Notes: generated by a model from the sequence alone, not told the origin. A DNA stretch of 64,000 nt from a bacterium (GCA_046727955.1 JBKPDO010000010.1:5823-69822); one strand, 5' to 3'. Counted from the first letter of the stretch, positions 163 through 29,097 are shown. Made by a program: numbers and translations.

Positions 163-1854
163 ATGAGACCAATGGTGGGTCGCAGGCTCCTGGGCATCCC
201 GCCGAGCCAGGGTGGGAGCAGTCCGCTCTACCTCTACATGACGGCCGTCTCGGTAGCGGGCCTCGTCGTTCTCATCTACGCGGTGGTTCGCGCCGTGCCC
301 GCCACCCACCACGCTTCGGCGGCCTTCTGGCTGCTCGCGGTCCTGGTCCTGGTCCTGCAGGCAACGCCGATCTCGGTGGAGCCGTGGGTGGGCGGCGTCG
401 TCAGCACCTCGTTCCCGTTCGCGCTGGCCATGCTGCTCGGCTGGGGCGCGTACCCGGCGACGGTGGTCAACGGGCTGGGCGCCGCGCTCGGCGCCGCCCG
501 GCTGCGCCAGCCGCCGAGGAAGCTCTGGTTCAACGTCGGCCAGCAAGTCCTCATGATCGCCGCGGCCGGCGCCGTCTACGGCCCGCTCGACGCCGGCCGC
601 CCGTTCGATTTCACCAGCTATCAGCTACTGAGCTTTGCCGTGGCCGGGACGGTGGCGGCGGTCGTCAACACCTCGCTGATCCGCATCGGCTTTGCCCTCG
701 ACCGGCAGCGCCCGGTCACGACCACGCCTCGCAGCCGCTTCGACGCCTGGCTGTACCCGGTCGAGCTGAGCATGGGCCTGGTGGTGCTGCTCGTCGCACA
801 GCACGTCCCGTGGCTGCTGGTGGTGCTCGCGCCGGCCTCGATCATCCCCATCTACGTAGCCGCGCGGGCTGCGCTGGAGGCGCACGCGCGGCGTGCCGAC
901 GCGGAGGCGGCGCGTACCGTGGCCGAGGCCGCGCGCAGCGAGGCGGAGGCCGCCAGGGTCGCGGCCGAGCAGGTGGCCAGCGAGCACGCCCGCCTGATCC
1001 ACGCCAGCAACAGGCTGATCCGGCGCCTTGAGGAGGTCGACCGGCACAAGGACGAGATGCTGGCGGCGGTCACCCACGAGCTGCGCACGCCGGCGTCCAG
1101 CATCCTCGGGGTTGTCCGCACCCTGGGCCAGGCAGGCGACCGTCTCAGCCCCGAGCAGCACCAGCAGTTCCTGGGCCTGGTCCTGGAGCAGGCCGAGCAG
1201 CTCGACGAGCTCATCAGCCAGCTCCTGCTCGCCGCCAAGCTGCAGCAGCCCCAGTTCGTCGCCGACCCGACCACACGCGAGCTGGCGGACCTTGCCGAGC
1301 TGGCCCGCCGGGCGGGGCAGCTCGCCACCCTCACCTACCCGGACCGTCCGGTCGAGGTCGACGCCGACGACCAGCTGCCGGTGCAGGTCGATCGCAAGGT
1401 GGTCGCGCAGATCCTCGGCAACCTAGTCGGCAACGCCGCCACGCACACTCCGCCGGGCACGCCGATCGTGCTGGAGGCGGGACGCCGCGGGAGCCTCGCG
1501 GTGGTCGCGGTCGAGGACCGCGGACCGGGCGTGCCACCCCAGGAGCGTACCCGCGTCTTCGAGCGGTTCACGCAGCTCAACGGCACCGAGACGGCTCACA
1601 AGGGCGGCGTCGGGCTGGGTCTGTATATCGCGCGCCAGCTCGCGCGCGCCCAGGGCGGCGAGGTGCTGGCGGTCGACCCGGTCGCCGAGGGCGGCGCCCG
1701 CTTCGAGCTGCGCCTGCCGGTGCTCGAGGCAGGCGCCGCCGACGAGCCGCCGGCCACCAAGCCGGCCACCAAGCCGGCCACCAAGCCGGCCACCAAGCCG
1801 GCCACCAAGCCGGCGACCGCGGCCAAGCCGCCGGCCGACGCCGCCACGCCCTGA
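163..1854 (+). CDS. Sensor histidine kinase: polytopic N-terminal membrane domain, HisKA H-box (VTHELRTPASSILG), HATPase_c (GLGLYIARQLARAQGGEV); C-terminal (PATK)n basic repeat tail. Alternative start at M26 (238).
   Basis: ORF track translation. H-box and G-box motifs are visible. Hydrophobic N-terminal segments. No response regulator adjacent. Confidence 0.8.
   Translation: MRPMVGRRLLGIPPSQGGSSPLYLYMTAVSVAGLVVLIYAVVRAVPATHHASAAFWLLAVLVLVLQATPISVEPWVGGVVSTSFPFALAMLLGWGAYPATVVNGLGAALGAARLRQPPRKLWFNVGQQVLMIAAAGAVYGPLDAGRPFDFTSYQLLSFAVAGTVAAVVNTSLIRIGFALDRQRPVTTTPRSRFDAWLYPVELSMGLVVLLVAQHVPWLLVVLAPASIIPIYVAARAALEAHARRADAEAARTVAEAARSEAEAARVAAEQVASEHARLIHASNRLIRRLEEVDRHKDEMLAAVTHELRTPASSILGVVRTLGQAGDRLSPEQHQQFLGLVLEQAEQLDELISQLLLAAKLQQPQFVADPTTRELADLAELARRAGQLATLTYPDRPVEVDADDQLPVQVDRKVVAQILGNLVGNAATHTPPGTPIVLEAGRRGSLAVVAVEDRGPGVPPQERTRVFERFTQLNGTETAHKGGVGLGLYIARQLARAQGGEVLAVDPVAEGGARFELRLPVLEAGAADEPPATKPATKPATKPATKPATKPATAAKPPADAATP
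1750..1830 (+). repeat. 12-bp tandem repeat (ccggccaccaag) x ~6.5, encoding PATKPATKPATK at the C-terminus of the histidine kinase
   Basis: Direct reading of sequence 1741-1830 and of the ORF translation. Confidence 0.8.
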
Positions 1855-1898
1855 TCAGCTATGCCGCCTGAAGGACCGGGGACTAACGCTCGGCTGTG

Positions 1899-2744
1899 CT
1901 ACTCACCCCCGAGGGTGGAGGGGCCTCGCTCTTGAGTCCCCCGGACCCCCTCGGTGCGGGGAGCCTCGCCGGCGGGGCGCCGGCGTTCTCGCGCCAGCCG
2001 GCGGTGACGCTGGAGGGTGCGCAGGGTGCCGAGGCCGTAGACCACCGACCGGCGGAAGTTCACCGAGCTCGCCTCGGTGAAATAGCGCGTCGGCACGGGG
2101 ATCTCGCCGATGCGGAAGCCGGCCAGCACGACCTGGGAGACCAGCTCCTGGTCGAAGACGAAGTCGTTGGAGTTGGCGTGGTAGTCGATCGCCTCGAGCA
2201 GCTTGCGGGAGTATGCCCGGTAGCCGGAGTGGTACTCGGACAGGTCGAGCCCGAAGGCGCGGTTCTCCAGCACCGTGAGGAAGCGGTTGGCCACGAACTT
2301 CCAGCGCGGCATGCCGCCGGCCAGCGGGTCGCCGAGCAGCCGGCTGCCGAGCATCATGTCCGCCCTGCCCTCGACGATCGGGGCGATCAGGTCGGGGATG
2401 CGGGTGGCGTCGTACTGGTAGTCCGGGTGGAGCATGACCACCACGTCGGCTCCCTCGGCCAGGGCGGTGTCGTAGCAGGTCTTCTGGTTGCCGCCGTAGC
2501 CGAGGTTCTGGCGGTGAACGACCACCTGGAGGTCGAGGAGCTCGGCGACCGCGACGGTGTCGTCCCGCGACAGGTCGTCGACCAGGATCACGTGGTCGAC
2601 CACTTCGGAGGGGATCTCGCGGTAGGTGCGGACCAGCGTGCGCGCCGCGTTGTAGGCGGGCATTACCACGATGACCTTGGGTCGCTGCGATGGTGGCTGC
2701 ATGAATTCGGCCTGTCCTACGGGGCTCGGTCCGGCTGTGGGCAT
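1899..2744 (-). CDS. Family 2 glycosyltransferase, soluble polyprenyl-phosphate sugar synthase-like (DPM1/Ppm1-like catalytic domain, no C-terminal TM)
   Basis: N-terminal VIVVMPAYNAARTL..VILVDDLSRDDT (GT-A fold DxD region). About 280 aa. Confidence 0.75.
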   Translation of the reverse strand: MPTAGPSPVGQAEFMQPPSQRPKVIVVMPAYNAARTLVRTYREIPSEVVDHVILVDDLSRDDTVAVAELLDLQVVVHRQNLGYGGNQKTCYDTALAEGADVVVMLHPDYQYDATRIPDLIAPIVEGRADMMLGSRLLGDPLAGGMPRWKFVANRFLTVLENRAFGLDLSEYHSGYRAYSRKLLEAIDYHANSNDFVFDQELVSQVVLAGFRIGEIPVPTRYFTEASSVNFRRSVVYGLGTLRTLQRHRRLARERRRPAGEAPRTEGVRGTQERGPSTLGGE

Positions 2745-2815
2745 TGCGACGACGAACGCCCCGGATAGTAGTCAATCAAACCCGTACCGGGCGAGATCGG
2801 CTAGTGGCGCAGGCC

Positions 2816-4354
2816 CTAGCCGGGCGCGACGCGCAGGAGGTAGAGGCCCCGTACCGGGTCGACGAGCAGCGGCGCGACCTGGAGGCGGCCGATCCGCTTG
2901 GGAATGGTCGTCGACAGCGGCGCGAAGCGGGGCTCAGAGGGGAACTCGTTCCGGTCGTAGAAGACCGCCACCGTCCCGGAGAGGGCACCGTCCAGCGGCT
3001 GATGGAGCGTGCTCAGGAACAGATCGCGCGCCCGACCGAGCGGGAGCCCCAGCTCCAGCGCTATCCGCGGGCGCTGCATGATGGGGACGGCCACCACTGT
3101 CCCGGGCGCCGCGACGAGCGGTCGGAGCGCGCGGACCGCGATCGCCGTGTCTCGGCTGAGGTCGGCGCCGGGGTCCAGGGTCGAGCGAACCAACTGCTGG
3201 TTGGTCAGCGCCAGCGGCCAGGCGGCGGCGGCGGTGATGCCGCCGGCGAGCAACCCGCCGAGCAGCGCGCCGAGGACCGTGCGCCACCTGCCGCCGCCAA
3301 GAGCGCGCAGCGCGAGCGGCACGGCAGCGGCGGCGAGCCATGCGGCGCCCAGAGCGGCGAGGACCCGCATGCCCGCGTCGGGCGGGTCGTAGTAGCGGAA
3401 GGAGATGTACGTGCCCCGCCAGGCCTCCACGCCGAGAAAAGCGAGCACACCGACGACGACCACGCCCACGCCGGTCAGCCACAGCCAGGCCCGCCGCCTG
3501 ACGAGCCCGACCACGCCGAGCAAGGCCAGGGCGGACAGCAGCGGGGTGGCCCAATAGCGCTGGGCGACCCGGCCCGTCCATTCGAGCGGCGCGACCGCGT
3601 GGCGACCGCTGAGCAGGTCCGTGTAGCGCTCGGGAACCTCGAGCGAGTGCAGCGCGTCGCCGGTGAGCGCCAAGTCGTGGCCCAGCCACAGCAGCGGCGC
3701 GGCCAGGGGCACGAGCAGCAGCAGGGCGCGCCGCTCGCCGCGCCGCCAGGCGACCAGACCGAGCAGGACAGCGGGAGGCAGCAGCAGCAAGCTCTCGGCC
3801 CGGGTGAGGCTGGCCAGCAGCAGCGCGGCCGCGGCCACCCCCCAGCGCCGCTGTGGCCGCGCCAGCGAATCGAGCGCCACTGCCCAGCCCGCCAGCGCCC
3901 AGATCGACGAGTTGCCCCGGCCCACCTGACTGATCAGTGGGGCCGACCCGGCCAGCGCCAGCACGACCGCCACAGCGGCGGGGGGCCCCGCCAAGCGCCC
4001 GGCCGCACGGGCCAAAGCGGTCACAGCCAAGGCGAAGACCGCCACGGTAAGGACGCTGATGGTGCGCCAGTCGTGGGTGAGCGTCCAGGCCAGGCCATCG
4101 ACCAGGGTGAGCAGCGGCTTGGGGGTCGACAGCAGGAACTCCTCCAGGCGCCGGCCATGGATCAGGCGGTCGAAATACAGCGCTGAGGCGTACTCGTCTG
4201 GATCGAGCGTCGGCGGCCCCGGCAGCCGCACCAGCAGCGCGGTCGCCCCCGCGACCGCCGACCACAACGCCAGCCACGGCCAGGACGCCACGCGGGGAGC
4301 CCTGACGGGCGCCGGCGCGTGGACAGGGCCGTCAGCAGTCACCACCGCCACCGG
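2816..4354 (-). CDS. Polytopic GT-C superfamily glycosyltransferase (GT39/GT83-like; PMT/ArnT-type). Start uncertain (ORF runs to 4801).
   Basis: Many TM helices. First-loop DE motif (PPTLDPDEYASALYFDR). GTG start at 4354 is chosen because an AAGGAGG RBS sits about 10 nt upstream. Confidence 0.6.
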   Translation of the reverse strand, partial: PVAVVTADGPVHAPAPVRAPRVASWPWLALWSAVAGATALLVRLPGPPTLDPDEYASALYFDRLIHGRRLEEFLLSTPKPLLTLVDGLAWTLTHDWRTISVLTVAVFALAVTALARAAGRLAGPPAAVAVVLALAGSAPLISQVGRGNSSIWALAGWAVALDSLARPQRRWGVAAAALLLASLTRAESLLLLPPAVLLGLVAWRRGERRALLLLVPLAAPLLWLGHDLALTGDALHSLEVPERYTDLLSGRHAVAPLEWTGRVAQRYWATPLLSALALLGVVGLVRRRAWLWLTGVGVVVVGVLAFLGVEAWRGTYISFRYYDPPDAGMRVLAALGAAWLAAAAVPLALRALGGGRWRTVLGALLGGLLAGGITAAAAWPLALTNQQLVRSTLDPGADLSRDTAIAVRALRPLVAAPGTVVAVPIMQRPRIALELGLPLGRARDLFLSTLHQPLDGALSGTVAVFYDRNEFPSEPRFAPLSTTIPKRIGRLQVAPLLVDPVRGLYLLRVAPG

Positions 4355-4452
4355 GTCCACCACCTCCTTCAGCGCGACTGCATCGTACCGTTGCCGCTCC
4401 GCCAGGATGCGATAGATTGCCGTGGCCGCGCTCCGGCGGCGATGGTGAGGTG

Positions 4453-5250
4453 ATGGTGACCGAATTCGACGCCAAGCAGTATTGGGAGACCCGTCTGGCG
4501 GCCAATCCTGGACTTCGCGGTGTCGGCTTCGTGCGGCTTGGACGCCAATACAACGACTGGCTGTACCGGGTGCGGCGCCAGGTCTTCCCGCGCCGCCTGC
4601 GGGCGCTCGACACCCGCATGGACGGCCTGGACGTGCTCGACATCGGCTCCGGCACAGGGTTCTACCTAGACCGCTGGCGCGAGCTGGGGGTCCGCTCGGT
4701 GGTGGGGACGGATCTCGCCGAAGTCGCCGTCCAGGCGCTGCGCCGCAGCCACCCTGGCACCGAGGTCTATCAGGTCGACATCGGCGGTGATCTCGGGCCA
4801 CTGAGCGGCCGCACGTTCGGCATCGTCTCGGCCTTCGACGTCCTGTTCCACATCGTGGAGGACGATCGCTTCGAGGCAGCGATCAAGCACGTCCGCTCGC
4901 TGCTCGAGCCAGGTGGCCTCTTCGTGTGGTCGGACAACTTCGTTCATCAGCAGACGGTGCGGATCCCCCATCAGTCGAGCCGCTCGCTGGACTTCATCGA
5001 GCGGACGCTCGCCTCGTCAGGGTTCGAGGTGGTCGAGCGACGACCGATGTTCGTGCTGATGAACGGCCCGGCCGACACCCGCAGTCCCCTGCTCAAGGGC
5101 TGGTGGCTGGCACTGCGCGGCGCCGTCTCGCTCGGAGAGCCGGTGGGCTGGACGCTTGGCGCCCTGCTCTATCCGCTCGAGCTGCTGCTCACCCGCCTCC
5201 TGAAGGAGAGCCCAAGCACTGAATTGATGATCTGCCGCGCGGTCGACTGA
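4453..5250 (+). CDS. Class I SAM-dependent methyltransferase
   Basis: Motif I VLDIGSGTGFY. RBS GGTGAGG before ATG at 4453. Divergent from the GT-C gene. Confidence 0.75.
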   Translation: MVTEFDAKQYWETRLAANPGLRGVGFVRLGRQYNDWLYRVRRQVFPRRLRALDTRMDGLDVLDIGSGTGFYLDRWRELGVRSVVGTDLAEVAVQALRRSHPGTEVYQVDIGGDLGPLSGRTFGIVSAFDVLFHIVEDDRFEAAIKHVRSLLEPGGLFVWSDNFVHQQTVRIPHQSSRSLDFIERTLASSGFEVVERRPMFVLMNGPADTRSPLLKGWWLALRGAVSLGEPVGWTLGALLYPLELLLTRLLKESPSTELMICRAVD

Positions 5251-5293
5251 CCCTGTCCGTCTGCCGACAAAGCGTCACGCTGGCATTGGCCAC

Positions 5294-5791
5294 TCAGGGC
5301 ACACCGCGACCGCGGCGGATCGCCTCGGTCCGGGCCAGCCGATGCTCGCGCCGGATCTTCGCCTCGGCCTGGCGGCGGCGCTCCTGCTCGGTCTCGGGCT
5401 GCAGCGGCGCCACCGGCCGCGGCCGTCCACCCTGGTCGAGCGCGACGAACACCAGGTAGGCCGAGGAGGTGTGGGTGCGCTGCCCGGTCACCAGGTCCTC
5501 CGCCTCGACCCTCACCCCGACCTCCATGGAGGTGCGGCCCACGTCGTTCACGCAGGCGTGCACGAACACCACGTTGCCCACGTGGACAGGGTGCAGGAAG
5601 CTCATCTCGTCGAGCGAGACCGTGACCGTTAGCCCGCCGGCGTGGCGGCCGGCGGCGATGCCCGCCGCGCTGTCGATCAGCTTCATGATCTCGCCGCCGT
5701 GGACGTTGCCCGCGAGGTTCGCGTGCACGAGCTCCATGAGCTGCGACAGCGTCACCGCCGACTCCCGCGGCGCCTTGGGCTCGAGGCTCAT
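5294..5791 (-). CDS. Acyl-CoA thioesterase (hotdog fold, YciA-like)
   Basis: About 165 aa with a hotdog-like core. Sits immediately downstream of the acyl-CoA dehydrogenase, with stop/start adjacent. Confidence 0.6.
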   Translation of the reverse strand: MSLEPKAPRESAVTLSQLMELVHANLAGNVHGGEIMKLIDSAAGIAAGRHAGGLTVTVSLDEMSFLHPVHVGNVVFVHACVNDVGRTSMEVGVRVEAEDLVTGQRTHTSSAYLVFVALDQGGRPRPVAPLQPETEQERRRQAEAKIRREHRLARTEAIRRGRGVP

Positions 5792-5792
5792 G

Positions 5793-6959
5793 CTAGATGC
5801 GACCGCGGTCCCGGTGCTGGCGCAGGCGGCGAGCCATCACGACCCTGAGGATCTGGTTCGTCCCCTCATAGATCTGGGTGACTTTCGCGTCCCTCATCAT
5901 GCGCTCGACAGGAAATTCCTTGACGTAGCCGTAGCCGCCGAGGAGCTGTACCGCGTCGGCGGTCACGCGCATGGCGGTGTCGCTAGCGAGGCACTTGGCG
6001 GCCGCCGCGAAGAAGGTGAGGTCATCGTCATCGCGGTCGGCCCTCGCGGCGGCGCCGTAGACCATGGCGCGCGCCGCCTCCACCGACATCGCCATGTCCG
6101 CGAGCATGAACTGGATGCCCTGGAAGTCCGCGATGGCCGTGTGGAACTGCTGCCGCTCCTCGACGTAGCCGAGGCTGTAATCGAGCGCGCCCTGGGCGAT
6201 GCCGACGGCTTGCGCCCCGATGGTGACGCGGCTGTGGTCCAGCGCCCGCAGGGCCAGCGGGAAGCCCTGGCCCTGTTCGCCGAGCCGGTTGGCGGCGGGC
6301 ACGCGCACGTCCTGGCAGATGATCTCGGTGGTGGGCGAGCCGCGGACGCCCAGCTTGTCCTCGTGCTTGCCGACCTGAAAGCCGGGCATGGAGTCCTCGA
6401 GCACGAAGGCGGAGATGCCCTTGGAGCCGGCCTGGGGGTCGGTCACGGCGTAGTAGACGTAGAGCTTGCTCACCCCGCCGCCGGTGATGAACCGCTTTGT
6501 GCCGTTGAGCACGTAGTCGTCGCCGTCGCGCACGGCCCGGGAGCGCATGGCCGCCGCGTCCGACCCGGAGCCGGGCTCTGTCAGGCAGTAGGACGCCAGC
6601 GCGCTTCCGTCGGCGATCGGGGGCAGGAAGCGGCCCCGCTGCTCCTGGTCGCCGACGAACAGGACCGGCAGGGTGGCGAGCTTGTTGACGGCGGGAACCA
6701 GCGAGGTGCTGGCGCAGACCCTGGCGAGCTCCTCGATCAGCACGCAGTGGGTGACCGAGTCGGCCCCACCACCGCCGTGCTCCTCGGGGATGTTGAGCCC
6801 CAGCAGGCCGGCGGACTTCAGCACCTCGACGTTGTCCCAGGGGAACTCCCCGGTCCGGTCGATCTCGGCCGCCCGCTCGGTGAACTTGTCCTCGAACAGC
6901 CGCCGCCACTCCCTGCGGAACAGCTGCTGGTCCTCGGTGAGCGTGAACGCCTCGGTCAT
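5793..6959 (-). CDS. Acyl-CoA dehydrogenase (388 aa). The ORF-track extension to 8162 is an artefact antisense to the GT2 gene.
   Basis: MTEAFTLTEDQQLF..CLTEPGSGSDAAAM..GGYGYVKEFPVERMMRDAKVTQIYEGT are ACAD signatures. Internal ATG located by frame arithmetic. Confidence 0.85.
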   Translation of the reverse strand: MTEAFTLTEDQQLFRREWRRLFEDKFTERAAEIDRTGEFPWDNVEVLKSAGLLGLNIPEEHGGGGADSVTHCVLIEELARVCASTSLVPAVNKLATLPVLFVGDQEQRGRFLPPIADGSALASYCLTEPGSGSDAAAMRSRAVRDGDDYVLNGTKRFITGGGVSKLYVYYAVTDPQAGSKGISAFVLEDSMPGFQVGKHEDKLGVRGSPTTEIICQDVRVPAANRLGEQGQGFPLALRALDHSRVTIGAQAVGIAQGALDYSLGYVEERQQFHTAIADFQGIQFMLADMAMSVEAARAMVYGAAARADRDDDDLTFFAAAAKCLASDTAMRVTADAVQLLGGYGYVKEFPVERMMRDAKVTQIYEGTNQILRVVMARRLRQHRDRGRI

Positions 6960-7148
6960 GGTGCCAACCTCCTCGAGCGGCGCCAACCGCGATCGTACAG
7001 GGCTTCCGTACCCTTCCGTAGAATGAAGCGCGTCCGGAACAGCGACAATGGCGAGGCCTTTCGACACCTGCGGACAGCGCCGCTCGGCCAGGGGAACCGG
7101 GCGGCCGGGGCGTTTGGATCGTGACCGACGACCTGGGATCATGCGCCT

Positions 7149-8090
7149 ATGACTGATCAGGACGGGCAACTGGTCTCCGTGGTCGTGCCCGCGCACAACG
7201 AGGAGACCACCGTCGGCGTGTTCGTGGAGCGGACCGCCAAGGCGTTCGCGCAGCTCGGCCGGCCCTGGGAGCTGCTGTACGTCGACGACGGCTCCACCGA
7301 CGGCACCGCCGCGGCGGTCGAGACGGCCGCGACCTCCGAGCCTCGCGTCCGCATGGTCCGCCAGCGCCGCAACCTCGGCCTCACCGAGGCCCTCAACCGC
7401 GGCTTCCGCGAGGCGCGGGGGGAAGTGATCGTGTTCCTGCCGGCGGACCTCGAGTCCGACCCGCAGGTCGACATCCCGCTCCTGCTGGGCAAGCTGGACG
7501 AGGGCTACGACGTGGTGGCCGGCTGGCGGCAGGGCCGGCGCGACGGCAAGCGCTTCGCCAGCCGCCTCGCCAATTTCACCTGCCGCGTGATGTTCGGGCT
7601 CGACGTGCACGACATGAACTGGATCAAGGCGTTCCGGCGCGAGGTCACCGACGCCCTGGCGCTGCGCTCGTCCTGGCACCGCTACATCCTGGTCATGGCG
7701 CAGAACGAGGGCTTCCGGATCGGCGAGGTCAAGGTCCCCTACAAGGCGCGCGCGGTGGGGCGGTCCAAGTTCGGCTTCTCGCGGCTGCCGGTATCGTTCA
7801 TAGACGTGGTCACGCTCAAGTTCCTGCTCACCTTCCAGCGCAAGCCGATCCTTTTCTTCGGCGCGCTCGGCGCGGGCATGATCGGCGCCGGCGTGCTGCT
7901 GTGGATCTACCTGCTGTGGTCGTTCCTGGCCTCGCACACGCAGTACCGCCCGCTGATGCTGGTCGCCGGCATCGCCATGCTGGCGGGGCTGCTGGTCGTC
8001 CTGGTCGGCTTCCTGGGCGAGCTGGTGGTCAACGTCTCCGAGCGGGTCGACCGTCTGGAACGGCGACTCACCGACGAGCGGGAGCGTTGA
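7149..8090 (+). CDS. Family 2 glycosyltransferase with two C-terminal TM helices (GtrB/ArnC/DPM1-like polyprenyl-phosphate hexose synthase)
   Basis: LVSVVVPAHNEE..LLYVDDGSTDGT, with a C-terminal hydrophobic pair (ILFFGALGAGMIGAGVLLWIYLL..). Confidence 0.8.
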   Translation: MTDQDGQLVSVVVPAHNEETTVGVFVERTAKAFAQLGRPWELLYVDDGSTDGTAAAVETAATSEPRVRMVRQRRNLGLTEALNRGFREARGEVIVFLPADLESDPQVDIPLLLGKLDEGYDVVAGWRQGRRDGKRFASRLANFTCRVMFGLDVHDMNWIKAFRREVTDALALRSSWHRYILVMAQNEGFRIGEVKVPYKARAVGRSKFGFSRLPVSFIDVVTLKFLLTFQRKPILFFGALGAGMIGAGVLLWIYLLWSFLASHTQYRPLMLVAGIAMLAGLLVVLVGFLGELVVNVSERVDRLERRLTDERER

Positions 8091-8191
8091 GCGCGACCCA
8101 GGCAACGCAGACCGGCTCCTCCTCTTCCCGACCGGCGGGCGTGGTGGCGGGCCCCTCACCACTGAGGCGCCGGTCGCGGAGCTGGATCGCG

Positions 8192-9934
8192 ATGGCGCTC
8201 GCGACGCTGGTTGCCTGGGCGGCGCTCAGCTGGCCGCTGGCCATCCATTTCGACCACGTCTGGACGATGAAGGGCAACCGCTCGGCCGCCCAGGAGCCGA
8301 ACTTCACCGCCAGGCCAGGCGCCCTGGCCGGTGGCGACTCGCTGCAGAACGTCTTCATCGAGTCCGTGGTGGTCGACAACCTCCGCGAGCTGCGCAACCC
8401 TTTCCTCGACCTGCGCGAGGGCACGGCCGGACCGGCGCCGCTGCGCACCACCTCGCTGGACCTGCCGTGGACACTGCTGTTCGCGCTGGTCTGGCCGCTG
8501 GCCGGTCTGGTCCCCGCCTACAACGCGACGCTGCTGCTGTCCACCCTGCTCACCGGGCTGGTGACCTTCGGCTGGCTGCGGCGCCACGCCCGCTGGCCAC
8601 CGCTCGCCGCGGCGGGCGCGCTCGCCTACACCTTCACGCCGAACCACCTGTTCCAGCTCACCAGCCACTACAACGCGGTCATGTGGTGGGCGTTCCCGGC
8701 GGCGGTGTGGGCCTTCGAGGCCGCCGTCGAGCGCCACCGCGCGGGCGCGCGCTGGCGCGGCCCGGCGCTCGCGCTGACCGCGGTGGTCCTGCTGGTCGGC
8801 CTCTCCGGCGAGTACCACCTCGCCCTATACCTCGCGGGCCTGCTGGTCTTCCTGGCGGCCTGGTCGCTCGGCGGCGCGAGGCTGGCGCGCCGGCCACTGC
8901 CGTGGGGCCCGGCGCTCACCGCCGTCGCCGCGGTCGCGGTGTCCACCGGTTACGTGCTGGCCACCTTCCACTACGTCTTCAAGGGCACGGTCGCCGGCGA
9001 GAACGGGACCTGGAGCCAGGTCGTGCTGTACGCGCCGTCGTCGGTGTGGGCGCTGGTGCGCAAGAGCTTCGGCACCCAGGGCGAGGGGCTGATCTACGTC
9101 GGCTGGCCGCTGCTGCTGCTGGCCGCCGCTGGCCTGGTGGTGGCGCTGGCGGTCGCCAAGCAGCGCGAGCGCACGCTGGCCTATGCCGTGCTGGTCGTGC
9201 CGCTGCTCGCGCTCACCTACGGCCCGAGGGCGGACGTCGGGTCATTCCGGCCCTACCGGTTCCTCTTCGACCACCTGCCGTTCCTGTCGCTGCAGCGTGT
9301 GCCGGAGCGGCTCATGGTCGTGACCGCGATGGTGCTGGTCCTGCTGGCCGTGGTGGCGGTCGACACCGGCGCGGAGGCGGTGCTCCGCTGGGCGGTGCTC
9401 GGCCGGGCGGTGCTCCGCTGGGCGGTGCTCGGCCGGGCGGTGGCGAGACGGCTTGGCGTGGTCGCGCTGCTGCTGGCGACCGTACTGCTGCTGGTGGACT
9501 ATCGCATCTCCGAGAGCCGGCTGCAGCCGGACCTGACGGGCAACCAGGTGGTGGCGACGCTGCGGGACGCGGGCGAGCGGGCCGGCCCGATCCTCGGCAT
9601 CCCCGTGCTGGGGCCTGGGGTGACCTGGAACTCGGCCACCACCTACCTGGCCGCGCAGAGCCGCCGGCGCTCGCTCAACGCCTACAACCAGACGCCGGCG
9701 CCCTGGCTGAACGAGCGGCTCCAGCGCCTGGACCCGCTCAACCGCGGCACCGCCGGCCCGGCCGCCCTCGACCTGCTCGCCGCCACCGGCACCAGGCAGG
9801 TGGTGGTCATCGACGAGCCGCGCGTCTTCGCCCCCGGCCAGTGGCAGGCGACCGTGGACGCGCTGCTCGCCTCCGGCCACTTCCGCCTGGTCGCCCGCGA
9901 CCCGCCACTCGCCCTGCTCGAGCGCACAGGCTGA
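8192..9934 (+). CDS. Large polytopic membrane protein, putative lipid-linked-sugar-dependent glycosyltransferase (GtrC/GT-C-like). ATG at 8192; the ORF track starts at 7901, overlapping the GT2 gene.
   Basis: More than 10 predicted TM segments. Immediately downstream of the GtrB-like GT2. No recognisable catalytic motif, so the function is inferred from context. Confidence 0.5.
   Translation: MALATLVAWAALSWPLAIHFDHVWTMKGNRSAAQEPNFTARPGALAGGDSLQNVFIESVVVDNLRELRNPFLDLREGTAGPAPLRTTSLDLPWTLLFALVWPLAGLVPAYNATLLLSTLLTGLVTFGWLRRHARWPPLAAAGALAYTFTPNHLFQLTSHYNAVMWWAFPAAVWAFEAAVERHRAGARWRGPALALTAVVLLVGLSGEYHLALYLAGLLVFLAAWSLGGARLARRPLPWGPALTAVAAVAVSTGYVLATFHYVFKGTVAGENGTWSQVVLYAPSSVWALVRKSFGTQGEGLIYVGWPLLLLAAAGLVVALAVAKQRERTLAYAVLVVPLLALTYGPRADVGSFRPYRFLFDHLPFLSLQRVPERLMVVTAMVLVLLAVVAVDTGAEAVLRWAVLGRAVLRWAVLGRAVARRLGVVALLLATVLLLVDYRISESRLQPDLTGNQVVATLRDAGERAGPILGIPVLGPGVTWNSATTYLAAQSRRRSLNAYNQTPAPWLNERLQRLDPLNRGTAGPAALDLLAATGTRQVVVIDEPRVFAPGQWQATVDALLASGHFRLVARDPPLALLERTG
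9378..9437 (+). repeat. 30-bp direct repeat x2 inside the CDS (encodes AVLRWAVLGR AVLRWAVLGR)
   Basis: Sequence 9371-9440 read directly. Confidence 0.6.
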
Positions 9935-10128
9935 TCCGCGCTCATCTCCGAGGGCCGTCGTGGGGTGCGGCGCGGCACCACCGGCACGGCGAGAGTGCCA
10001 ACAGAGCGCCGGTCAAGCAGGCGGCGCAGCGTGCAGCGCCAGACCATACGTGCAGCTCCTGGCCCTGCGCACCGCCCCCGGTGGCCACCCGATCACCTCA
10101 AACCGGCTACTTGACCGGCGCTCTACCG

Positions 10129-11136
10129 TCAGCCGCGCACGTGCTCTGACGGGGCGTCCCGCCCGCGCGAGCGGTGCAGGGCGCGTTCGATCGCGTAGGC
10201 GACGAGGGCGCCGAGCAGGTCGAAGAGCGTCAGCCACAGGCGCGAGACGAGCGCGACCACCAGCGCCGGGCCGGCCGGCACCACCGGGGAGAGGGCGAGC
10301 ACCAGCACACCCTCACGCACCCCCAGACCGGCGGGGGTGAGCAGCGACAGGAACCCGACCGCGTAGCCCGCGGCATAGCCAGCCACCGCCAGCGGGACCC
10401 CCGATGCCGCCAGCGGGAAGATGCTCCGGACCAGGGCGGCGAATGCCAGCCCGATCAGCCCCCAGTAGAGCAGGTAGCCGCCGGCCAGCCCAGCCACCAC
10501 CCCGCGCGACGGCACCATCGGCGCGTCCCCCCCGGCATCCTCGCCACCTCGCCGCAGCAGCCGGTCGAGCACCAGGCCGAGATCCGGGTAGCGCCCCCGC
10601 ACGAACCGTCCCAGCGGCCGCCACAGCACTAGCACCAGCAGCGACAGCCCCACCAGCGCGGCGAGCCCGAGCAGCGCCGAGCGGCCCAGCCGCGCCCACT
10701 CCGCGACCAGCACGGGCAGTCCCACCAGCAGCGCCACACCCACCGACAGCGCCTGCGTCAGCGCCATCACCGCCAGCGTCGTGCGGCGCGGCGCTCCCTC
10801 TCGCCTGGCCAGCTCGACCGCGCCGACGAAGCTCCACACGTTCCCAGGCACGTACCTCGCCAGGTTGGACAGGAACCAGATTCGTGCGCCCGCCGCCACC
10901 GGCGTCGGCGTCACCCTCGCCAGCGCCACCGCCCACAAGCCCGCCACCAGCGCGTAGGATACCGCGCACGCAAGGCAGGCGAGCGCGAAATACGCGGGGT
11001 CGAGGCTCCATTTCACCGCGGTGACCTGGTGCCAGCGGCTCACCAGAGTCCACGAAAAAAACCCGGCGACCAGCGCCAGCACGGGTATCGCCCGCCAGCG
11101 GAGGGACCGGGGTCGCGCCGCTGAATCCTGCTCCAC
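10129..11136 (-). CDS. Flippase-like membrane protein (lysylphosphatidylglycerol-synthase TM-region family / UPF0104)
   Basis: Polytopic. Conserved ARYVPGNVWSF-type motif typical of this family. This family often accompanies GT2 enzymes. Confidence 0.6.
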   Translation of the reverse strand: MEQDSAARPRSLRWRAIPVLALVAGFFSWTLVSRWHQVTAVKWSLDPAYFALACLACAVSYALVAGLWAVALARVTPTPVAAGARIWFLSNLARYVPGNVWSFVGAVELARREGAPRRTTLAVMALTQALSVGVALLVGLPVLVAEWARLGRSALLGLAALVGLSLLVLVLWRPLGRFVRGRYPDLGLVLDRLLRRGGEDAGGDAPMVPSRGVVAGLAGGYLLYWGLIGLAFAALVRSIFPLAASGVPLAVAGYAAGYAVGFLSLLTPAGLGVREGVLVLALSPVVPAGPALVVALVSRLWLTLFDLLGALVAYAIERALHRSRGRDAPSEHVRG

Positions 11137-11266
11137 GTCTGCTCCCGGGTGATAACGTCAACCTTGTGGCATGCTAACTGCTCGTCCACGTTGCCGTTCG
11201 GCATGCTTTTCGACTAGCTTCTCGCTTGAGCACGAACCCTATTTGATCGAGGAGGAATCCGCCCTG

Positions 11267-11806
11267 ATGGCAGTCAAGACCATCCACGTCTCGGACATCT
11301 CGGGCAAGGAGGCGGACGAGCAGTCACTTGGGCGTCTCGTCGTCCATGAGCACCCGGAATACTCGGACCTGCCAGTCACCCTCGAGGCGCTGCCCGAGGA
11401 GGTCCAGCCGCTCCGAGACTCCTCCGCTCGTTTCGTCACCGTAGAGTGGGTCCGTCCCGGCACGCGCAAGGGCGAGCGCATGACGGTGCCGGTGGAGGAC
11501 TTCAACCTCCTCGCCGGGCCCGGCGTAATGGACAACGCCATCCAGGATGCGCTCATCTCCAAGCACCGCAGCCGCGCACGCAGCAGCACCGAAAGCGGCC
11601 GCGCCAGCGCGTCCCGGTCGAGCCGCGCAAAGGTCAACTACGCCACGCTCGAACACGCCGGCGAGCCGCACCGCGGGCGCATCACCGAGTCCGAGAAGGA
11701 ACTGGTGCGCACCCATCTCGACGAGATCAACAAGCGCCTGAGCGACGACGGGATGCGCGAGATCGACCCGAACGACGCGACTATGAAGGAGCGTTACGGC
11801 CTGTAA
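11267..11806 (+). CDS. Hypothetical small basic protein, possibly Lsr2-like nucleoid-associated: N-terminal beta-rich acidic domain, Ser/Arg-rich linker, C-terminal RGRI motif
   Basis: GAGGAGG RBS at 11250-11256, 10 nt before ATG 11267. C-terminal ...PHRGRITESEKELVRTHL resembles the Lsr2 RGR minor-groove motif. Weak. Confidence 0.45.
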   Translation: MAVKTIHVSDISGKEADEQSLGRLVVHEHPEYSDLPVTLEALPEEVQPLRDSSARFVTVEWVRPGTRKGERMTVPVEDFNLLAGPGVMDNAIQDALISKHRSRARSSTESGRASASRSSRAKVNYATLEHAGEPHRGRITESEKELVRTHLDEINKRLSDDGMREIDPNDATMKERYGL

Positions 11807-11854
11807 GGTTGGGATCCAGATCCGCGCACTGCCCGAAACGCTCTCATCCGTAAA

Positions 11855-12628
11855 ATGCCGGTTCTGGTCGGAACTTCTGGGTGGCAGTACCGTGATTGGC
11901 GCGGCCGTTTCTATCCGGAGCGGCTGGCGCAGGCAAAGTGGCTCGAGCACTACGCCGGCCAGTTCATGACGGTGGAATCGAACAACGCCTTCTATAGGCT
12001 GCCGGAACCGCACACCTTTGCGGCTTGGGCCGCGCGAACACCGCCGGATTTCGTGATGGCGGTGAAGGCGAGCCGCTTCCTCACCCACGTCAGGCGCCTG
12101 CGCGACCCAGAGGAGCCGGTGCGGCGTTTCCTCGAGCACGCCGGCCAGCTTGGCGCCAAGCTGGGCCCGGTGCTGCTCCAGCTCCCGCCCACGCTCAAGG
12201 TGGATCTCGGCGCGCTGCGGGACACCCTGGAGCGCTTCCCGCGCGAGGTGCGAGTCGCGGTGGAGCCGCGCCACGACAGCTGGTTCAGCGACGAGACCCG
12301 CGCCCTGCTGGCCGACCGGGGCGCGGCGCTGTGCCTGGCCGACAGCCCGAGGAGGCGCTCGCCGCTCTGGCGCACCAGCGACTGGAGCTATCTCCGCTTC
12401 CACGAGGGGGCCGCGACGCCGTGGCCGTGCTATGGCGAGCAGGCGCTCGCCAGGTGGGCCGAGGCGCTGGCCGGCACCTGGGGCCCTGAGCCGGACGTCT
12501 ACGTCTATTTCAACAACGACCGGGGCGGCTGCGCGGTACGCGACGCGGCCCGCTTCGCCCGCGCGGCCACCCGATCGGGCCTGCACCCCACCCGCACGCC
12601 GTCGCCGAGCCAGGTACGGGTGGGCTGA
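11855..12628 (+). CDS. DUF72 (UPF0759) family protein
   Basis: N-terminal VGTSGWQYRDWRGRFYP signature. Confidence 0.8.
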   Translation: MPVLVGTSGWQYRDWRGRFYPERLAQAKWLEHYAGQFMTVESNNAFYRLPEPHTFAAWAARTPPDFVMAVKASRFLTHVRRLRDPEEPVRRFLEHAGQLGAKLGPVLLQLPPTLKVDLGALRDTLERFPREVRVAVEPRHDSWFSDETRALLADRGAALCLADSPRRRSPLWRTSDWSYLRFHEGAATPWPCYGEQALARWAEALAGTWGPEPDVYVYFNNDRGGCAVRDAARFARAATRSGLHPTRTPSPSQVRVG

Positions 12629-12652: not shown

Positions 12653-13810
12653 CTACCCTCGCGCCTCGATGCCGAGCGCGCGGGCGATCAGGATGCGCAT
12701 GACCTCGCTCGTGCCCTCCCCGATCTCCAGGATCTTGGCGTCGCGGTAGAAGCGCGCCACGGGGAATTCGTTGACATAGCCGTAGCCGCCGTGGACCTGC
12801 ACCGCCTCGCGGGCGCAGGTGACCGCCGCCTCGGAGGCGTAGAGCTTGGCGATCGCGGCCTCCTTGCCGAAGGGCTCGCCCGCCATCAGCTTGCTGGCCG
12901 CCCGCTGCCAGGCGAGCCTGGCCGTGTGGGCGCGCAGCTCCATGTCGGCGATCTTGAAGGCGATCGCCTGGAACGAGGCGATCGGCTGGCCGAAGGCACG
13001 GCGCTCGCGCGCGTACTTCACGCACTCGTCGACGCAGCCCTGGCACAGCCCGGTGCCGAGCGCGGCGATCGCCACCCGGCCCTCCTCCAGCGTGCGCAGG
13101 AAGTTGGCCAGGCCGGCGCCCCGCTCACCGAGCAGGTTCTCGGCGGGCACGCGGCAGGCCTCGAAGACCAGCTCACGCGTGTCCGAGGCGTGCCAGCCGA
13201 TCTTGGAGTAACGCCTGCCGACGCGGTAACCGGCGGTGCCGGTCGGCACCACGATGCTGGAGATCTCGCGCTTGCCGGCGCGCTCGCCCGTGACCGCGGT
13301 CACGGTGACCAGGCCGGAACGGGGCACGCCCGCGTTGGTGATGAACGCCTTGGTGCCGTCGATGACCCATTCGTCACCGTCGAGCCGGGCTCGGGTGCGC
13401 AGCGCGCCGGCGTCGGAGCCGCCGCCCGGCTCGGTCAGCCCGAAGGCGCCGAGCTGCTCACCGCGCGCCAGCGGCGGTAGCCAGCGCTGCCGCTGCTGCT
13501 GGCTCCCGAAGCGGTAGATCGGCATCGCGCCCAGGCCGACCGCCGCCTCCACGGTGATCGCCACCGACGAGTCGACCCTGGCCAGCTCCTCGATCGCCAG
13601 GCACAGGGTCAGGTAGTCGGCGCCCATCCCGCCGTAGCGCTCAGGGAACGGCAGGCCGAACAGGCCCATGCCGGCCATCTGGTCGAGGACGGCCTCGTCC
13701 AGCTCCTCGTCGCGGTCCATCGCCTCGGCTCTCGGGGCGACCACCTCGTCGGCGAATGCGCGGACGATCTTGCGGAACTCTTCCTGCTCCGGCTCGAGTG
13801 AGAAGTCCAT
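12653..13810 (-). CDS. Acyl-CoA dehydrogenase (isovaleryl-CoA dehydrogenase-like). An alternative upstream start lies at 13840.
   Basis: MDFSLEPEQEEFRK..GLTEPGGGSDAGAL..GGYGYVNEFPVARFYRDAKILEIGEGTSEV. Confidence 0.8.
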   Translation of the reverse strand: MDFSLEPEQEEFRKIVRAFADEVVAPRAEAMDRDEELDEAVLDQMAGMGLFGLPFPERYGGMGADYLTLCLAIEELARVDSSVAITVEAAVGLGAMPIYRFGSQQQRQRWLPPLARGEQLGAFGLTEPGGGSDAGALRTRARLDGDEWVIDGTKAFITNAGVPRSGLVTVTAVTGERAGKREISSIVVPTGTAGYRVGRRYSKIGWHASDTRELVFEACRVPAENLLGERGAGLANFLRTLEEGRVAIAALGTGLCQGCVDECVKYARERRAFGQPIASFQAIAFKIADMELRAHTARLAWQRAASKLMAGEPFGKEAAIAKLYASEAAVTCAREAVQVHGGYGYVNEFPVARFYRDAKILEIGEGTSEVMRILIARALGIEARG

Positions 13811-13901
13811 GACAAGCTCCCTCGTGGGGCGGCGCGACAAGCGGCGCGGGTGGCACCAAGTTCATCCTACGAGTCTGCACGGCCCAGGCTATCGGCCCAG
13901 G

Positions 13902-21168: not shown

Positions 21169-22100
21169 CCCGTCTCCCCCTGTGCCCGCTGGCCCGCGCT
21201 CAGCGCCGGCGCTCGGCGGGTGCGAGGCCCGGCGACCAGCACCTGGCTACGGAGCGGGTGGCCGACCAGCGCCCCGGCGAGCCGGGCCGCCTCGAGGAGG
21301 CGGTCGAGCTCGATGCCGGTGCCGATGCCCATGTCCTCGACCATGTGGACGACGTCCTCGCTGGCGACGTTGCCGCCCGCGCCCGGGGCGGTGGGGCTTC
21401 CGCCGAGCCCACCCACCGCGCTGTCGAAATCCACGCAGCCAGCCTGCAGCGCGGCCAGCAGATTCGCCAGGCCGGTTCCCCTGGTGTCGTGGAAGTGGCA
21501 GTTGATCGCCGGGGTCAGCGAGCGCAGCTCGGCCAGCAGCGCCTCGACCCGGGTCGGCGTGGCCATCCCGGTGGTGTCGCCAAGGGAGATCGCCCGGCAG
21601 CCGAGCTCGAGCAGCCGCCGCGCCAGCTCGACTACCCTGGCCACCGGCACGTCGCCCTCGTACGGGCAGCCCCAGGCGGTCGAGATGGTGGCCTCGACCG
21701 GCGTCTCGCCCGCCAGTCGCACCACTCCCGCGATCTGCCGCAGGGTCTGGTCGATGGTGCGGTTGACGTTGCTGGCGTTGTAGCTCTCGGAGGCGGCGAC
21801 CACCACCTGAAGCCGGTCGGCGCGGGCGGCCAGGGCGTCGCCGGCGCCGCGCTCGTTGGGCGCCAGCGCCGAGTAGGTCACCCCCGCCCGGCGGCGGATG
21901 CCGGCGAAGACCCGGTCGGTCGCGGCCATGGCGGGCACCGCCCTGGGCGAGACGAACGAGCCCACCTCGATACGCCGCACACCGGTGGCCGAGAGCGCAT
22001 CCACCAGCCGGACGCGCGCCTCGACCGGCAGCGGCGCCTCGCTCTGCAGCCCGTCGCGCGGTCCGACCTCGCGGAGGCTGATCGTCGTTGGCAGCTCCAC
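21165..22100 (-). CDS. Hydroxymethylglutaryl-CoA lyase
   Basis: EVGPRDGLQSE..HFHDTRGTGLAN..TIM-barrel HMGL signatures. Confidence 0.85.
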   Translation of the reverse strand: MELPTTISLREVGPRDGLQSEAPLPVEARVRLVDALSATGVRRIEVGSFVSPRAVPAMAATDRVFAGIRRRAGVTYSALAPNERGAGDALAARADRLQVVVAASESYNASNVNRTIDQTLRQIAGVVRLAGETPVEATISTAWGCPYEGDVPVARVVELARRLLELGCRAISLGDTTGMATPTRVEALLAELRSLTPAINCHFHDTRGTGLANLLAALQAGCVDFDSAVGGLGGSPTAPGAGGNVASEDVVHMVEDMGIGTGIELDRLLEAARLAGALVGHPLRSQVLVAGPRTRRAPALSAGQRAQGETG

Positions 22101-22235
22101 GGCACCTCGAGAAACTCAGCAAACCCGAACACGATCCTACCGGCCCCACCACTCCCCCGGCTCAGCTCACCGACACCCACCGGCACTCGGTCGCAAAGAA
22201 AAGGGATCCCCAAATGTCGAGGACCCCGGCTGGGA

Positions 22236-22916: not shown

Positions 22917-23042
22917 CCACCGCGGCCCCGCTCAAGAGCCCACAGCCCCGCTCAAGAGCCGGGCCCGGGTCCTTGGGTCCGGACTGGGGCCGGACCGTTG
23001 CACGATCGCAACCTCCGCGGCCGATCTTGACGGATGTAGCGG

Positions 23043-24020: not shown

Positions 24021-24039
24021 CTCGCCGAGACCGGCCGTC

Positions 24040-27336: not shown

Positions 27337-29097
<1,761 letters not shown>

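Follow-up and report, generated by a model that had tools for sequence, protein, structure and literature searches.

We analyzed a 64,000-nucleotide stretch of DNA (the window) from an uncultured soil actinobacterium, which encodes genes of two putative lipid-linked sugar transfer modules (Table 1). Genes were called by combining third-position GC frame analysis with Pfam and NCBIfam scans. All genes listed in a preliminary description of the locus were recovered, with two start codons corrected. A polytopic protein is indeed present where g3 had been placed (2816-4354), but 4354 falls on a CCG codon and the start is GTG 4351; the resulting 511 aa match P0121, a protein of equal length annotated in an NCBI MAG, with 100% identity across the whole query. 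For the polytopic protein behind GT2b that had been placed at 8192-9934 (g8), the most likely start is GTG 8141, with ATG 8192 less likely; the resulting length of 597 aa is shared by most homologues. The region had also been termed an island, which is too loose a word because its GC content (0.68-0.76) is the same as that of the flanks and the remainder of the window consists of core housekeeping genes. Further genes of acyl-CoA metabolism are found in the flanks.

Table 1. Genes called in the analyzed region, with positions counted from the first nucleotide of the window
Feature	Coordinates	Strand	Remarks
Sensor histidine kinase	163..1854	+	HisKA/HATPase_c; polytopic N-terminal domain
GT2a, soluble DPM1/PpgS/AglJ-like GT2	1899..2744	-	PF00535; without predicted TM helix
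g3, 511-aa polytopic GT-C-fold protein	2816..4351	-	Sequence family undescribed
Class I SAM-dependent methyltransferase	4453..5250	+	Divergent from g3
4HBT (YciA-like) acyl-CoA thioesterase	5294..5791	-	PF03061, YciA
Acyl-CoA dehydrogenase	5793..6959	-	Acyl-CoA_dh_N/M/1 matches
GT2b, ArnC/GtrB-type GT2	7149..8090	+	PF00535 plus two C-terminal TM helices
g8, 597-aa polytopic GT-C-fold protein	8141..9934	+	Sequence family undescribed
PplT/UPF0104 (LPG_synthase_TM) membrane protein	10129..11136	-	PF03706; convergent with g8
g10, 179-aa soluble protein	11267..11806	+	Conserved; adjoins PplT gene

GT2b matches PF00535 (8.3e-32, 110.9 bits, cutoff 23.3) and, over residues 7-299, the NCBIfam model of ArnC (3e-36), with PgfS at 3e-30. 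Its score of 125.1 bits is under the ArnC equivalog cutoff of 529 (PRK10714); judged by sequence, GT2b is ArnC-like and not ArnC. Residues 8-296 align to residues 9-298 of ArnC (9hwj, 9bhc, and 8vxh; E ~2e-34), transmembrane helices included, and residues 9-301 align to GtrB (5ekp; 1.8e-15). The two C-terminal transmembrane segments of GT2b lie at residues 234-252 and 271-289. At the position of DADLQ, the canonical metal/nucleotide motif of ArnC, GT2b has PADLE, which retains the second Asp and is kept in all six of the six close homologues; a distant relative has DADGQ. This end-to-end similarity suggests that GT2b is the membrane-anchored polyprenyl-phosphate sugar synthase of module 2.

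Foldseek comparison of the g8 model returned GT-C proteins for all top 12 matches, with probabilities of 0.97-1.00 and TM-scores of 0.33-0.40; the model is moderately confident, and the first loop (residues 33-125) lies outside the modeled part. The best structural matches include Pmt4, Pmt2, and the DPY19 C-mannosyltransferase. The first loop, which follows TM1, is long and is predicted to lie outside the membrane because the N-terminus is basic (RRRSRS). It contains six acidic residues that are invariant in 121 sequences (D38, D66, D79, D90, E93, and D107), and D66, which is part of a GDxLQ motif, is near-invariant down to approximately 20% identity. The protein also has a conserved QRVPER loop with R386 and a C-terminal extracytoplasmic domain. 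Fold and conservation together make g8 the putative glycosyltransferase of module 2.

Module 1 pairs GT2a with g3. GT2a was matched to PF00535 in the Pfam scan (4.7e-18), and its top three NCBIfam matches were AglJ (1.4e-21), PpgS (6.8e-20), and dolichyl-P hexose transferase (1.8e-12), none of which, nor any other NCBIfam match, reached its equivalog cutoff. The sole match among PDB sequences was Pyrococcus DPMS (5mlz; 2.5e-4). No transmembrane segment is predicted, leaving GT2a without a membrane anchor. In both NCBIfam and the PDB, its nearest relatives are lipid-phosphate sugar synthases and not soluble acceptor glycosyltransferases, which points to GT2a as the candidate polyprenyl-phosphate sugar synthase of module 1. 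Its partner g3 combines structural similarity to GT-C enzymes with an acidic first-loop motif, an invariant D50-P-D52-E53 immediately past TM1, and has a C-terminal extracytoplasmic alpha/beta domain; it is the putative glycosyltransferase of the module. As in g8, further invariant residues of g3 gather in predicted external loops.

At the sequence level, neither g3 nor g8 has a Pfam or NCBIfam match above threshold (PMT, PMT_2, YfhO, DUF2079, DUF6541, GT-C_AftD, and others). The same is true of 32 members of the g3 family with respect to described GT-C families, and among 58 distant relatives of g8 all matches to such families fall below threshold. Searches of PDB sequences with g3 and g8 profiles found nothing. 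Both proteins have a known fold, and their sequence families are undescribed in Pfam, NCBIfam, and PDB sequences; at this level, the earlier suggestion that the large membrane protein behind GT2b is a candidate new GT-C family is borne out. One alternative is that g8, g3, or both serve as an oligosaccharyltransferase, ligase, or polymerase whose substrates are oligosaccharides linked to polyprenyl diphosphate instead of polyprenyl-monophosphate monosaccharides, and that the GT2 enzymes act elsewhere. We regard this as very improbable. Both proteins lack the WWD(Y/W)G motif that oligosaccharyltransferases carry in the C-terminal domain, and indeed any WWD, the sole WW of g8 (residues 182-183) being in the membrane domain, and Pfam and NCBIfam scans found no phosphoglycosyltransferase or Wzx-type gene at the locus. 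Pmt, Aft, ALG9/12, and ArnT, all of which use monophosphate donors, score nearly as high, and tight coupling to a monosaccharide-P-polyprenol synthase also favors donors of this kind.

We compared gene neighborhoods across 17 informative related loci, defined as those that include sequence upstream of a g8 homologue with 61% identity or more. GT2b, which is 82-97% identical across related loci, immediately precedes g8 in 16 of the 17. A g8 relative with only 32% identity is followed by a GtrB/ArnC-type GT2 gene with a 4-nt overlap. Synteny among the close relatives is partly inherited because all are from one uncultured lineage; given the 16 loci and the recurrence at 32% identity, the adjacency of GT2b and g8 goes beyond chance. 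In loci L024 and Jc5, GT2b is kept and g8 is missing, so GT2b need not serve g8 alone. For module 1, the GT2a gene is directly downstream of g3 in L001, L002, L024, and Jc5; counting against the module reading, g3 homologues of 56-58% identity occur singly, with no GT2 gene beside them.

The membrane protein convergent with g8 matches PF03706 over residues 20-305 of 335 (1.8e-13, 51 bits, cutoff 33.4) and has approximately eight hydrophobic segments. Its gene is beside or near g8 in most related loci having enough downstream sequence, and in L030 an unrelated PF03706 gene divergently adjoins a g8 relative of 27% identity. Family membership and conserved neighborhood suggest that this PplT protein is a flippase for a lipid-linked sugar. 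Always beside the PplT gene across the related loci is g10, which is 65-95% identical among them and has no match in Pfam, NCBIfam, or the PDB.

Experiments tie PF03706 proteins to the flipping of phospholipids rather than polyprenyl-P-sugars, and members that stand alone occur alongside glycolipid synthases (PMC12713373; 10.1101/2022.03.11.483950). This raises the possibility that a glycosylated membrane lipid, for example a glycosyl-phospholipid or glycolipid as in GpgSDF, HexSDF, or MprF, is itself the end product, jointly produced and flipped by GT2b and the PF03706 protein, and that g8 acts in another way and does not use this lipid; the Jc5 locus, in which GT2b and PF03706 persist without g8, is consistent with it. 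We nevertheless consider it highly unlikely, as GpgS is a soluble GT4 and not a GT2 (PMC12713373), the architecture of GT2b is that of ArnC/GtrB in full and is specific for polyprenyl-phosphate acceptors, and g8 has a GT-C fold, follows GT2b in nearly all informative loci, and has a distant relative coupled to a GtrB-type GT2.

The preliminary description had proposed that the locus follows GtrABC / Ppm-Pmt logic, and our analysis supports this at the two points chosen beforehand as those on which the proposal could fail: g8 has a GT-C fold, and both GT2 enzymes group with polyprenyl-phosphate sugar synthases, GT2b with ArnC/GtrB from end to end and GT2a with AglJ/PpgS/DPMS. The explanation we find likely is that the region comprises two separate modules for extracytoplasmic glycosylation, both of the GtrABC/Arn/Ppm-Pmt type. 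In each, a sugar is probably first coupled to a lipid carrier in the membrane and then passed on to a cell-envelope target outside the cell. Module 2 would extend over 7149-11136. Anchored by its C-terminal helices, GT2b would draw on a nucleotide sugar at the cytoplasmic face to load polyprenyl phosphate with one sugar, as full-length homology to ArnC/GtrB suggests, and the PF03706 protein may move the polyprenyl-P-sugar to the outer leaflet. There, g8 would hand the sugar over to an acceptor located outside the membrane, with D66 in the first external loop as the likely catalytic acid and R386 as the likely ligand of the donor phosphate. In module 1 (1899-4351), soluble GT2a would make a second polyprenyl-P-sugar to be consumed by g3 as a second GT-C enzyme, with D50, D52, and E53 forming its putative catalytic loop. 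The two modules show no sign of cooperation.

The most likely acceptor is a glycopolymer of the cell envelope, a protein being less likely. The genomic context points weakly in this direction: an LCP gene, which encodes a ligase, adjoins the locus, and in L004 module 2 lies beside GT4 genes and an ABC-2 (Wzm/Wzt-type) exporter. Alternatively, the modules may glycosylate secreted or membrane proteins by Ppm1/Pmt-type O-glycosylation instead of a glycopolymer or lipoglycan, an explanation that departs from the two-module explanation above solely in the acceptor. The Pmt4, Pmt2, and DPY19 matches of g8 fit protein targets, as does the layout of module 1, in which a soluble DPM1-like GT2 and a GT-C enzyme with an acidic loop resemble actinobacterial Ppm1/Pmt. 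Against this, g3 and g8 have no match past threshold to PMT or PMT_2 in Pfam and no MIR domains, and the LCP ligase and the GT4 and exporter genes favor a glycopolymer without being decisive; we judge protein targets to be rather unlikely.

The glycosylation logic of such modules is already well known. Three-component systems are established for GtrA/GtrB/Gtr* O-antigen glucosylation and for the Gram-positive CsbB/GtcA/YfhO type (PMC11127046). Module 2 is like these in its combination of a GtrB/ArnC-type GT2, a polytopic enzyme with a GT-C fold, and a candidate flippase, with conserved coupling. It differs in that a PF03706/UPF0104 protein replaces the GtrA-family flippase, no GtrA-family or SMR/MATE flippase being detected by Pfam or NCBIfam among the proteins scanned across 163-12628, and in that g3 and g8 match no Gtr*/YfhO Pfam family above threshold. 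Among published architectures, the one nearest to module 2 is a predicted archaeal triad of an AglD-like GT2 (arCOG00897), a UPF0104 flippase (arCOG00899), and a PMT/STT3-like enzyme (arCOG00563) (Makarova et al. 2015, PMC5898192); like module 2, it unites GT2, PF03706, and GT-C-like proteins in a conserved neighborhood. The triad, which is itself a prediction, belongs to archaea and relies on dolichol, whereas module 2 is bacterial. Its GT2 is fused to UPF0104, whereas GT2b is ArnC-like with transmembrane helices of its own, and the GT-C protein of module 2 probably belongs to another sequence family. Module 1, a DPM1/PpgS-like GT2 without transmembrane helices and a GT-C-fold enzyme in one actinobacterial operon, resembles PpgS (Rv3631)/Rv3779 and Ppm1/Pmt. 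Mycobacterial Rv3779 and Pmt are GT-C enzymes that work with a soluble DPM1-like GT2. The differences are that GT2a scores 71 bits against the PpgS cutoff of 370 and that g3 has no sequence-level relation to described GT-C families.

In the Arn pathway (ArnB, ArnC, ArnE/F, and ArnT), which adds aminoarabinose to lipid A, the counterpart of GT2b is ArnC, whose cutoff GT2b falls far short of. Equivalents of ArnA, ArnD, and ArnE/F are absent, and the host, an actinobacterium, has no lipid A. In relatives, GT2b is preceded by a GFO oxidoreductase, with UDP-GlcNAc 3-dehydrogenase as its best match (3e-43), and a DegT aminotransferase; this pair, including the aminotransferase, is missing from the window. 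Based on these gene assignments, the pair suggests an amino sugar in the relatives, and the dehydrogenase match would imply a 3-amino hexose and not Ara4N. A bolder proposal, which we put forward tentatively and think rather unlikely as a whole, is that g3 and g8 represent two unclassified GT-C families confined to an uncultured soil actinobacterial lineage, that PplT is their dedicated polyprenyl-P-sugar flippase, and that module 2 in the GFO/DegT-bearing relatives supplies the envelope with a cationic 3-amino sugar. If true, this would be the first bacterial MprF-type (PF03706) domain to flip an isoprenoid-linked sugar, and module 2 in those relatives would be the functional counterpart, in actinobacteria, of charge modification by the Arn pathway.

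The methyltransferase, histidine kinase, thioesterase, and acyl-CoA dehydrogenase probably stand outside the mechanism. The kinase had been described as bracketing the region, but it lies on one side only. It has approximately six to seven hydrophobic segments and a (PATK)n C-terminal tail, with no response regulator in the adjoining genes. It is present in L001 and L002, and L024 and Jc5 have a GT2-methyltransferase fusion and an AMP-binding enzyme in its place; it is not conserved with the system and is probably an unrelated neighbor. The methyltransferase (Methyltransf_25/23/11/12 matches; start at 4450, 4453, or 4456) is present and divergent from g3, as had been described. The proposed link to methylation is weak because the gene is not conserved at this position: it occurs there only in the window and in L001, a contig from the same species, and relatives carry a polytopic protein of 519-541 aa instead. 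The acyl-CoA dehydrogenase and the thioesterase (PF03061, 3.9e-20; YciA, 7e-17) do lie between the modules, as previously noted, and the pair is syntenic in close relatives; it is absent beside module 2 in L004, and both are probably bystanders.

The best-supported reading of this region is a pair of three-component-type extracytoplasmic glycosylation modules, as the preliminary description proposed: module 1 consists of the family-2 glycosyltransferase GT2a and the large polytopic protein g3, and module 2 of a second such transferase (GT2b), the polytopic protein g8 and a flippase-like PF03706 protein. Both the examination of the GT-C fold and the clustering of the GT2 enzymes support this reading. 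We called genes in the window, whose GC content is approximately 72%, by third-position GC and assigned families with Pfam and NCBIfam models, which recovered the previously described gene list in full. Two start codons changed while the genes themselves stood. The codon at position 4354 is CCG, which moves the start of g3 to GTG 4351; the resulting 511-aa protein matches one of equal length called by NCBI at 100% identity across the whole query. The start of g8 is most likely GTG 8141 rather than 8192, giving 597 aa, the typical length of its homologues.

Coordinates of genes called in the window and of a third polytopic protein in two related loci
Feature	Sequence	Position	Strand	Basis
Histidine kinase	window	163-1854	+	third-position GC, family models
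GT2a	window	1899-2744	-	
Polytopic g3	window	2816-4351	-	
Class I SAM methyltransferase	window	about 4453-5250	+	
4HBT thioesterase	window	5294-5791	-	
Acyl-CoA dehydrogenase	window	5793-6959	-	
GT2b	window	7149-8090	+	
Polytopic g8	window	8141-9934	+	
PF03706 protein	window	10129-11136	-	
g10, conserved small protein	window	11267-11806	+	
Third polytopic protein	L002	2963-4588	-	
Third polytopic protein	L024	8433-9992	+	

The region has no distinct composition and the remaining window encodes core metabolism (carboxyltransferases, an HMG-CoA-lyase-like enzyme, biotin ligase, MetH, methylmalonyl-CoA mutase, aconitase, malate dehydrogenase and TrpRS), so "island" is a loose term for it. Nor does the histidine kinase bracket the region, since it lies on one side only. 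Promoter, terminator and Rfam scans over the region gave no signal beyond background.

Both GT2 enzymes group with lipid-phosphate sugar synthases rather than with soluble-acceptor transferases. Residues 8-296 of GT2b, including both C-terminal TM helices, align with three solved ArnC structures (E about 2e-34), and the protein can also be aligned to GtrB (5ekp) and DPMS. The ArnC NCBIfam model covers residues 7-299 at 125 bits, against a cut-off of 529 bits, which points to an ArnC-like enzyme rather than ArnC. GT2a has no predicted TM segments; AglJ, PpgS and dolichyl-phosphate hexose transferase are its best family matches and Pyrococcus DPMS is the single match in PDB, all of them sub-threshold. 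Where ArnC, GtrB and DPMS have D-A-D-L-Q, GT2b has P-A-D-L-E (residues 98-102, window 7434-7448), a motif kept in all six close homologues, and GT2a reads H-P-D-Y-Q. In this lineage, Pro thus takes the place of the first DXD Asp.

Neither g3 nor g8 matched any Pfam or NCBIfam model, and profiles of the two families (120-121 homologues) found nothing meaningful among PDB sequences. At E <= 0.001 we detected several hundred homologues for each of the two proteins (373 and 432); among the matches listed, all were unnamed or "hypothetical" except one labelled "MFS family permease," and the named sources were Actinomycetota MAGs and metagenomes. When 1.84 billion cluster representatives were searched exhaustively with HMMER, g8 matched only 172 clusters at E <= 0.001; across GTDB, with a single genome scanned for each species, 17 loci emerged, all from uncultured Actinomycetes or Actinomycetota MAGs. 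Seeding a profile search with distant relatives led back to the close family and brought in no named one. The Pfam matches of distant g8 relatives were all sub-threshold and all in the GT-C clan (PMT_2, DUF2079, YfhO, DUF6541, PTPS_related and GT-C_AftD), and nothing in this check spoke against a GT-C fold for the protein first placed at 8192-9934. As far as Pfam, NCBIfam and PDB are concerned, it still qualifies as a candidate for a new GT-C family. The g3 family lacks even sub-threshold GT-C clan matches in Pfam. The g8 and g3 families align by hhalign with a probability of only 28%; their common "SL(Q/E)(R)VPER" loop is suggestive of distant paralogy but no proof of it.

Conserved residues in both proteins are predicted to occupy GT-C active-site positions. 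An invariant D50-P-D52-E53 lies ten residues past TM1 of g3; the first loop of g8 carries invariant D38, D66 (GDxLQ), D79, D90, E93 and D107, and the loop preceding TM10 carries "QRVPER" (385-390). At about 20% identity, D66, N128, H176, P186 and R386 of g8 are still nearly invariant. The basic N-termini of g3 and g8 would place these loops outside the membrane. OST-like top matches support an oligosaccharyltransferase- or polymerase-like use of PP-linked donors; we disfavor this explanation because the WWD motif is missing, no phosphoglycosyltransferase or Wzx gene is present, and the enzyme is coupled with a monosaccharide-P-lipid synthase. An assignment of g8 as an oligosaccharyltransferase was rejected for lack of WWD. 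Within g8, the loop that joins the last two TM helices contains AVLRWAVLGR repeats, encoded by a perfect 30-bp in-frame tandem duplication (2.2 copies, window 9376-9442). There, a 760-aa g8 homologue in locus L004 has ~150 aa inserted, which marks the loop as a hotspot of length variation.

We compared neighborhoods using a tblastn matrix over 30 related loci together with tables of called genes. Among loci with upstream sequence and a g8 homologue at 61% identity or more, GT2b lies directly upstream of g8 in 16 of 17; in L017, the exception, g8 is reduced to a fragment. Identity across loci is 78-97% for GT2b and 61-91% for g8. The genes for the PF03706 protein and the small soluble protein g10 follow g8, either adjacent or past an insert of ~3.7 kb found in one sub-lineage (L011 8800-12500, with similar spacing in L006, L014 and L021). 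The insert, which encodes an ECF sigma factor with a possible anti-sigma protein as well as an ABC-2 transporter pair, is uninformative. g8 is dispensable: L024 and the Jc5 locus lack it and keep GT2b. Among distant loci, the g8 relative in L026 (32% identity) overlaps by 4 nt with a downstream gene for a GtrB/ArnC-type GT2 (36% identity to GT2b over 291 aa), and in L030 a PF03706 gene with no BLAST similarity to that of the window is divergently adjacent to a 27%-identical g8 relative. The association of GT2, GT-C and PF03706 genes therefore exceeds inherited synteny. g10 (179 aa) is always beside the PF03706 gene, at 65-95% identity across related loci, and is more conserved than g8 or the PF03706 protein. 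It contains an "HRGRI" motif but matches nothing in Pfam, NCBIfam or PDB, and these offer no support for an Lsr2-like DNA-binding protein, which the RGRI motif might suggest.

Our data show gene content, fold, motifs and adjacency, whereas donor lipid, flipping, catalysis and acceptor are inferred as follows. In module 2, GT2b would load a sugar onto polyprenyl phosphate at the cytoplasmic side of the membrane, the PF03706 protein would flip the charged lipid, and g8 would move the sugar onto an external acceptor; in module 1, GT2a and g3 would handle a second sugar likewise. A system of the GpgSDF/MprF type (PMC12713373), in which the glycolipid is itself the end product, is disfavored by the ArnC/GtrB architecture of GT2b and by the coupled GT-C. 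For the two-module system, an LCP ligase lies just past the kinase in L001, a contig of the same species, and near GT2a in L024 and Jc5, and in L004 module 2 adjoins several GT4 genes and an ABC-2 exporter. This context faintly favors a glycopolymer over a protein as acceptor.

The same logic operates in GtrABC, Arn, Ppm-Pmt and PpgS-Rv3779 and in the three-component systems that PMC11127046 reviews. The nearest architecture in the literature is a triad predicted for archaea, which groups an AglD-like GT2 with a UPF0104 flippase and a PMT/STT3-like enzyme (PMC5898192); fusions and adjacency of PF03706 domains with glycosyltransferases have also been catalogued (10.1101/2022.03.11.483950). Unlike these, the genes here are bacterial, GT2b is ArnC-like with TM helices of its own, no GtrA, SMR or MATE flippase gene is present, and neither GT-C sequence family has a Pfam or NCBIfam model. 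Because the logic of lipid-P-sugar synthase, flippase and GT-C is well established, the advance would be incremental rather than conceptual, of moderate relevance to glycobiology and of little surprise to glycobiologists. The system combines orphan GT-C families with a putative flippase type in an uncultured lineage. If the reading is correct, two orphan sequence families join the GT-C glycosyltransferases, each with a cognate lipid-sugar synthase as a ready pair for biochemistry and possibly a new CAZy family, and it gives a first view of envelope glycan decoration in a soil-abundant actinobacterial lineage with no cultured member. The locus would also allow a clean test in bacteria of a prediction made a decade ago, namely that UPF0104/PplT proteins flip sugars linked to isoprenoids besides aminoacyl-phospholipids.

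A DegT aminotransferase gene lies upstream of GT2b in most relatives, often preceded by a GFO/IDH/MocA oxidoreductase gene (GFO; best match UDP-GlcNAc 3-dehydrogenase, 3e-43). The two sit between the acyl-CoA dehydrogenase and GT2b genes in L002 (6777-8919) and L028 (3205-5365). In the window, tblastn found neither, and a 189-bp intergenic gap (6960-7148) takes their place. Both are also missing from L029 (a 91-93% relative) and present in L028 (81-85%), so the loss of this presumed amino-sugar branch is recent.

In module 1, GT2a lies downstream of g3 in L001, L002, L024 and Jc5. Homologues of g3 with 56-58% identity stand by themselves. A third polytopic protein (519-541 aa) with no Pfam or NCBIfam match adjoins g3 in L002, L024, L028, L017 and Jc5. 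By BLAST it resembles neither g3 nor g8, and it may represent a third GT-C-like enzyme. In the window, the methyltransferase occupies its exact position. This methyltransferase is lineage-specific and has no BLAST-detectable relation to the divergent one beside the distant GT-C in L026. Another non-orthologous methyltransferase occurs in L024 (12470-13936, - strand) and Jc5 as a domain of a 488-aa fusion, class I, joined to an AglJ-like GT2 domain. Methylated sugars are possible but unsupported.

In L024 and Jc5, the fusion gene and an AMP-binding enzyme take the place of the kinase beside GT2a; the kinase is not conserved at its position. Its 3' end (1749-1818) contains a 12-bp tandem repeat (5.8 copies, 98% matches) encoding a low-complexity (PATK)n C-terminal tail. 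A role for the acyl-CoA dehydrogenase and thioesterase in glycosylation chemistry is unsupported; they belong to a wider acyl-CoA neighborhood and are not next to module 2 in L004. Window positions 12653-13840 and 19597-29097 encode an acyl-CoA dehydrogenase, two carboxyltransferases, an HMG-CoA-lyase-like enzyme, biotin carboxylase and biotin ligase, a neighborhood of the leucine/acyl-CoA catabolism type that probably accounts for the interleaving of the acyl-CoA dehydrogenase and thioesterase genes with those for glycosylation. Downstream of the locus, a 521-aa protein with three N-terminal hydrophobic segments (13902-15467, - strand) is kept, and its positional counterparts in L002, L028 and L029 match PF07228 (SpoIIE/PP2C phosphatase).
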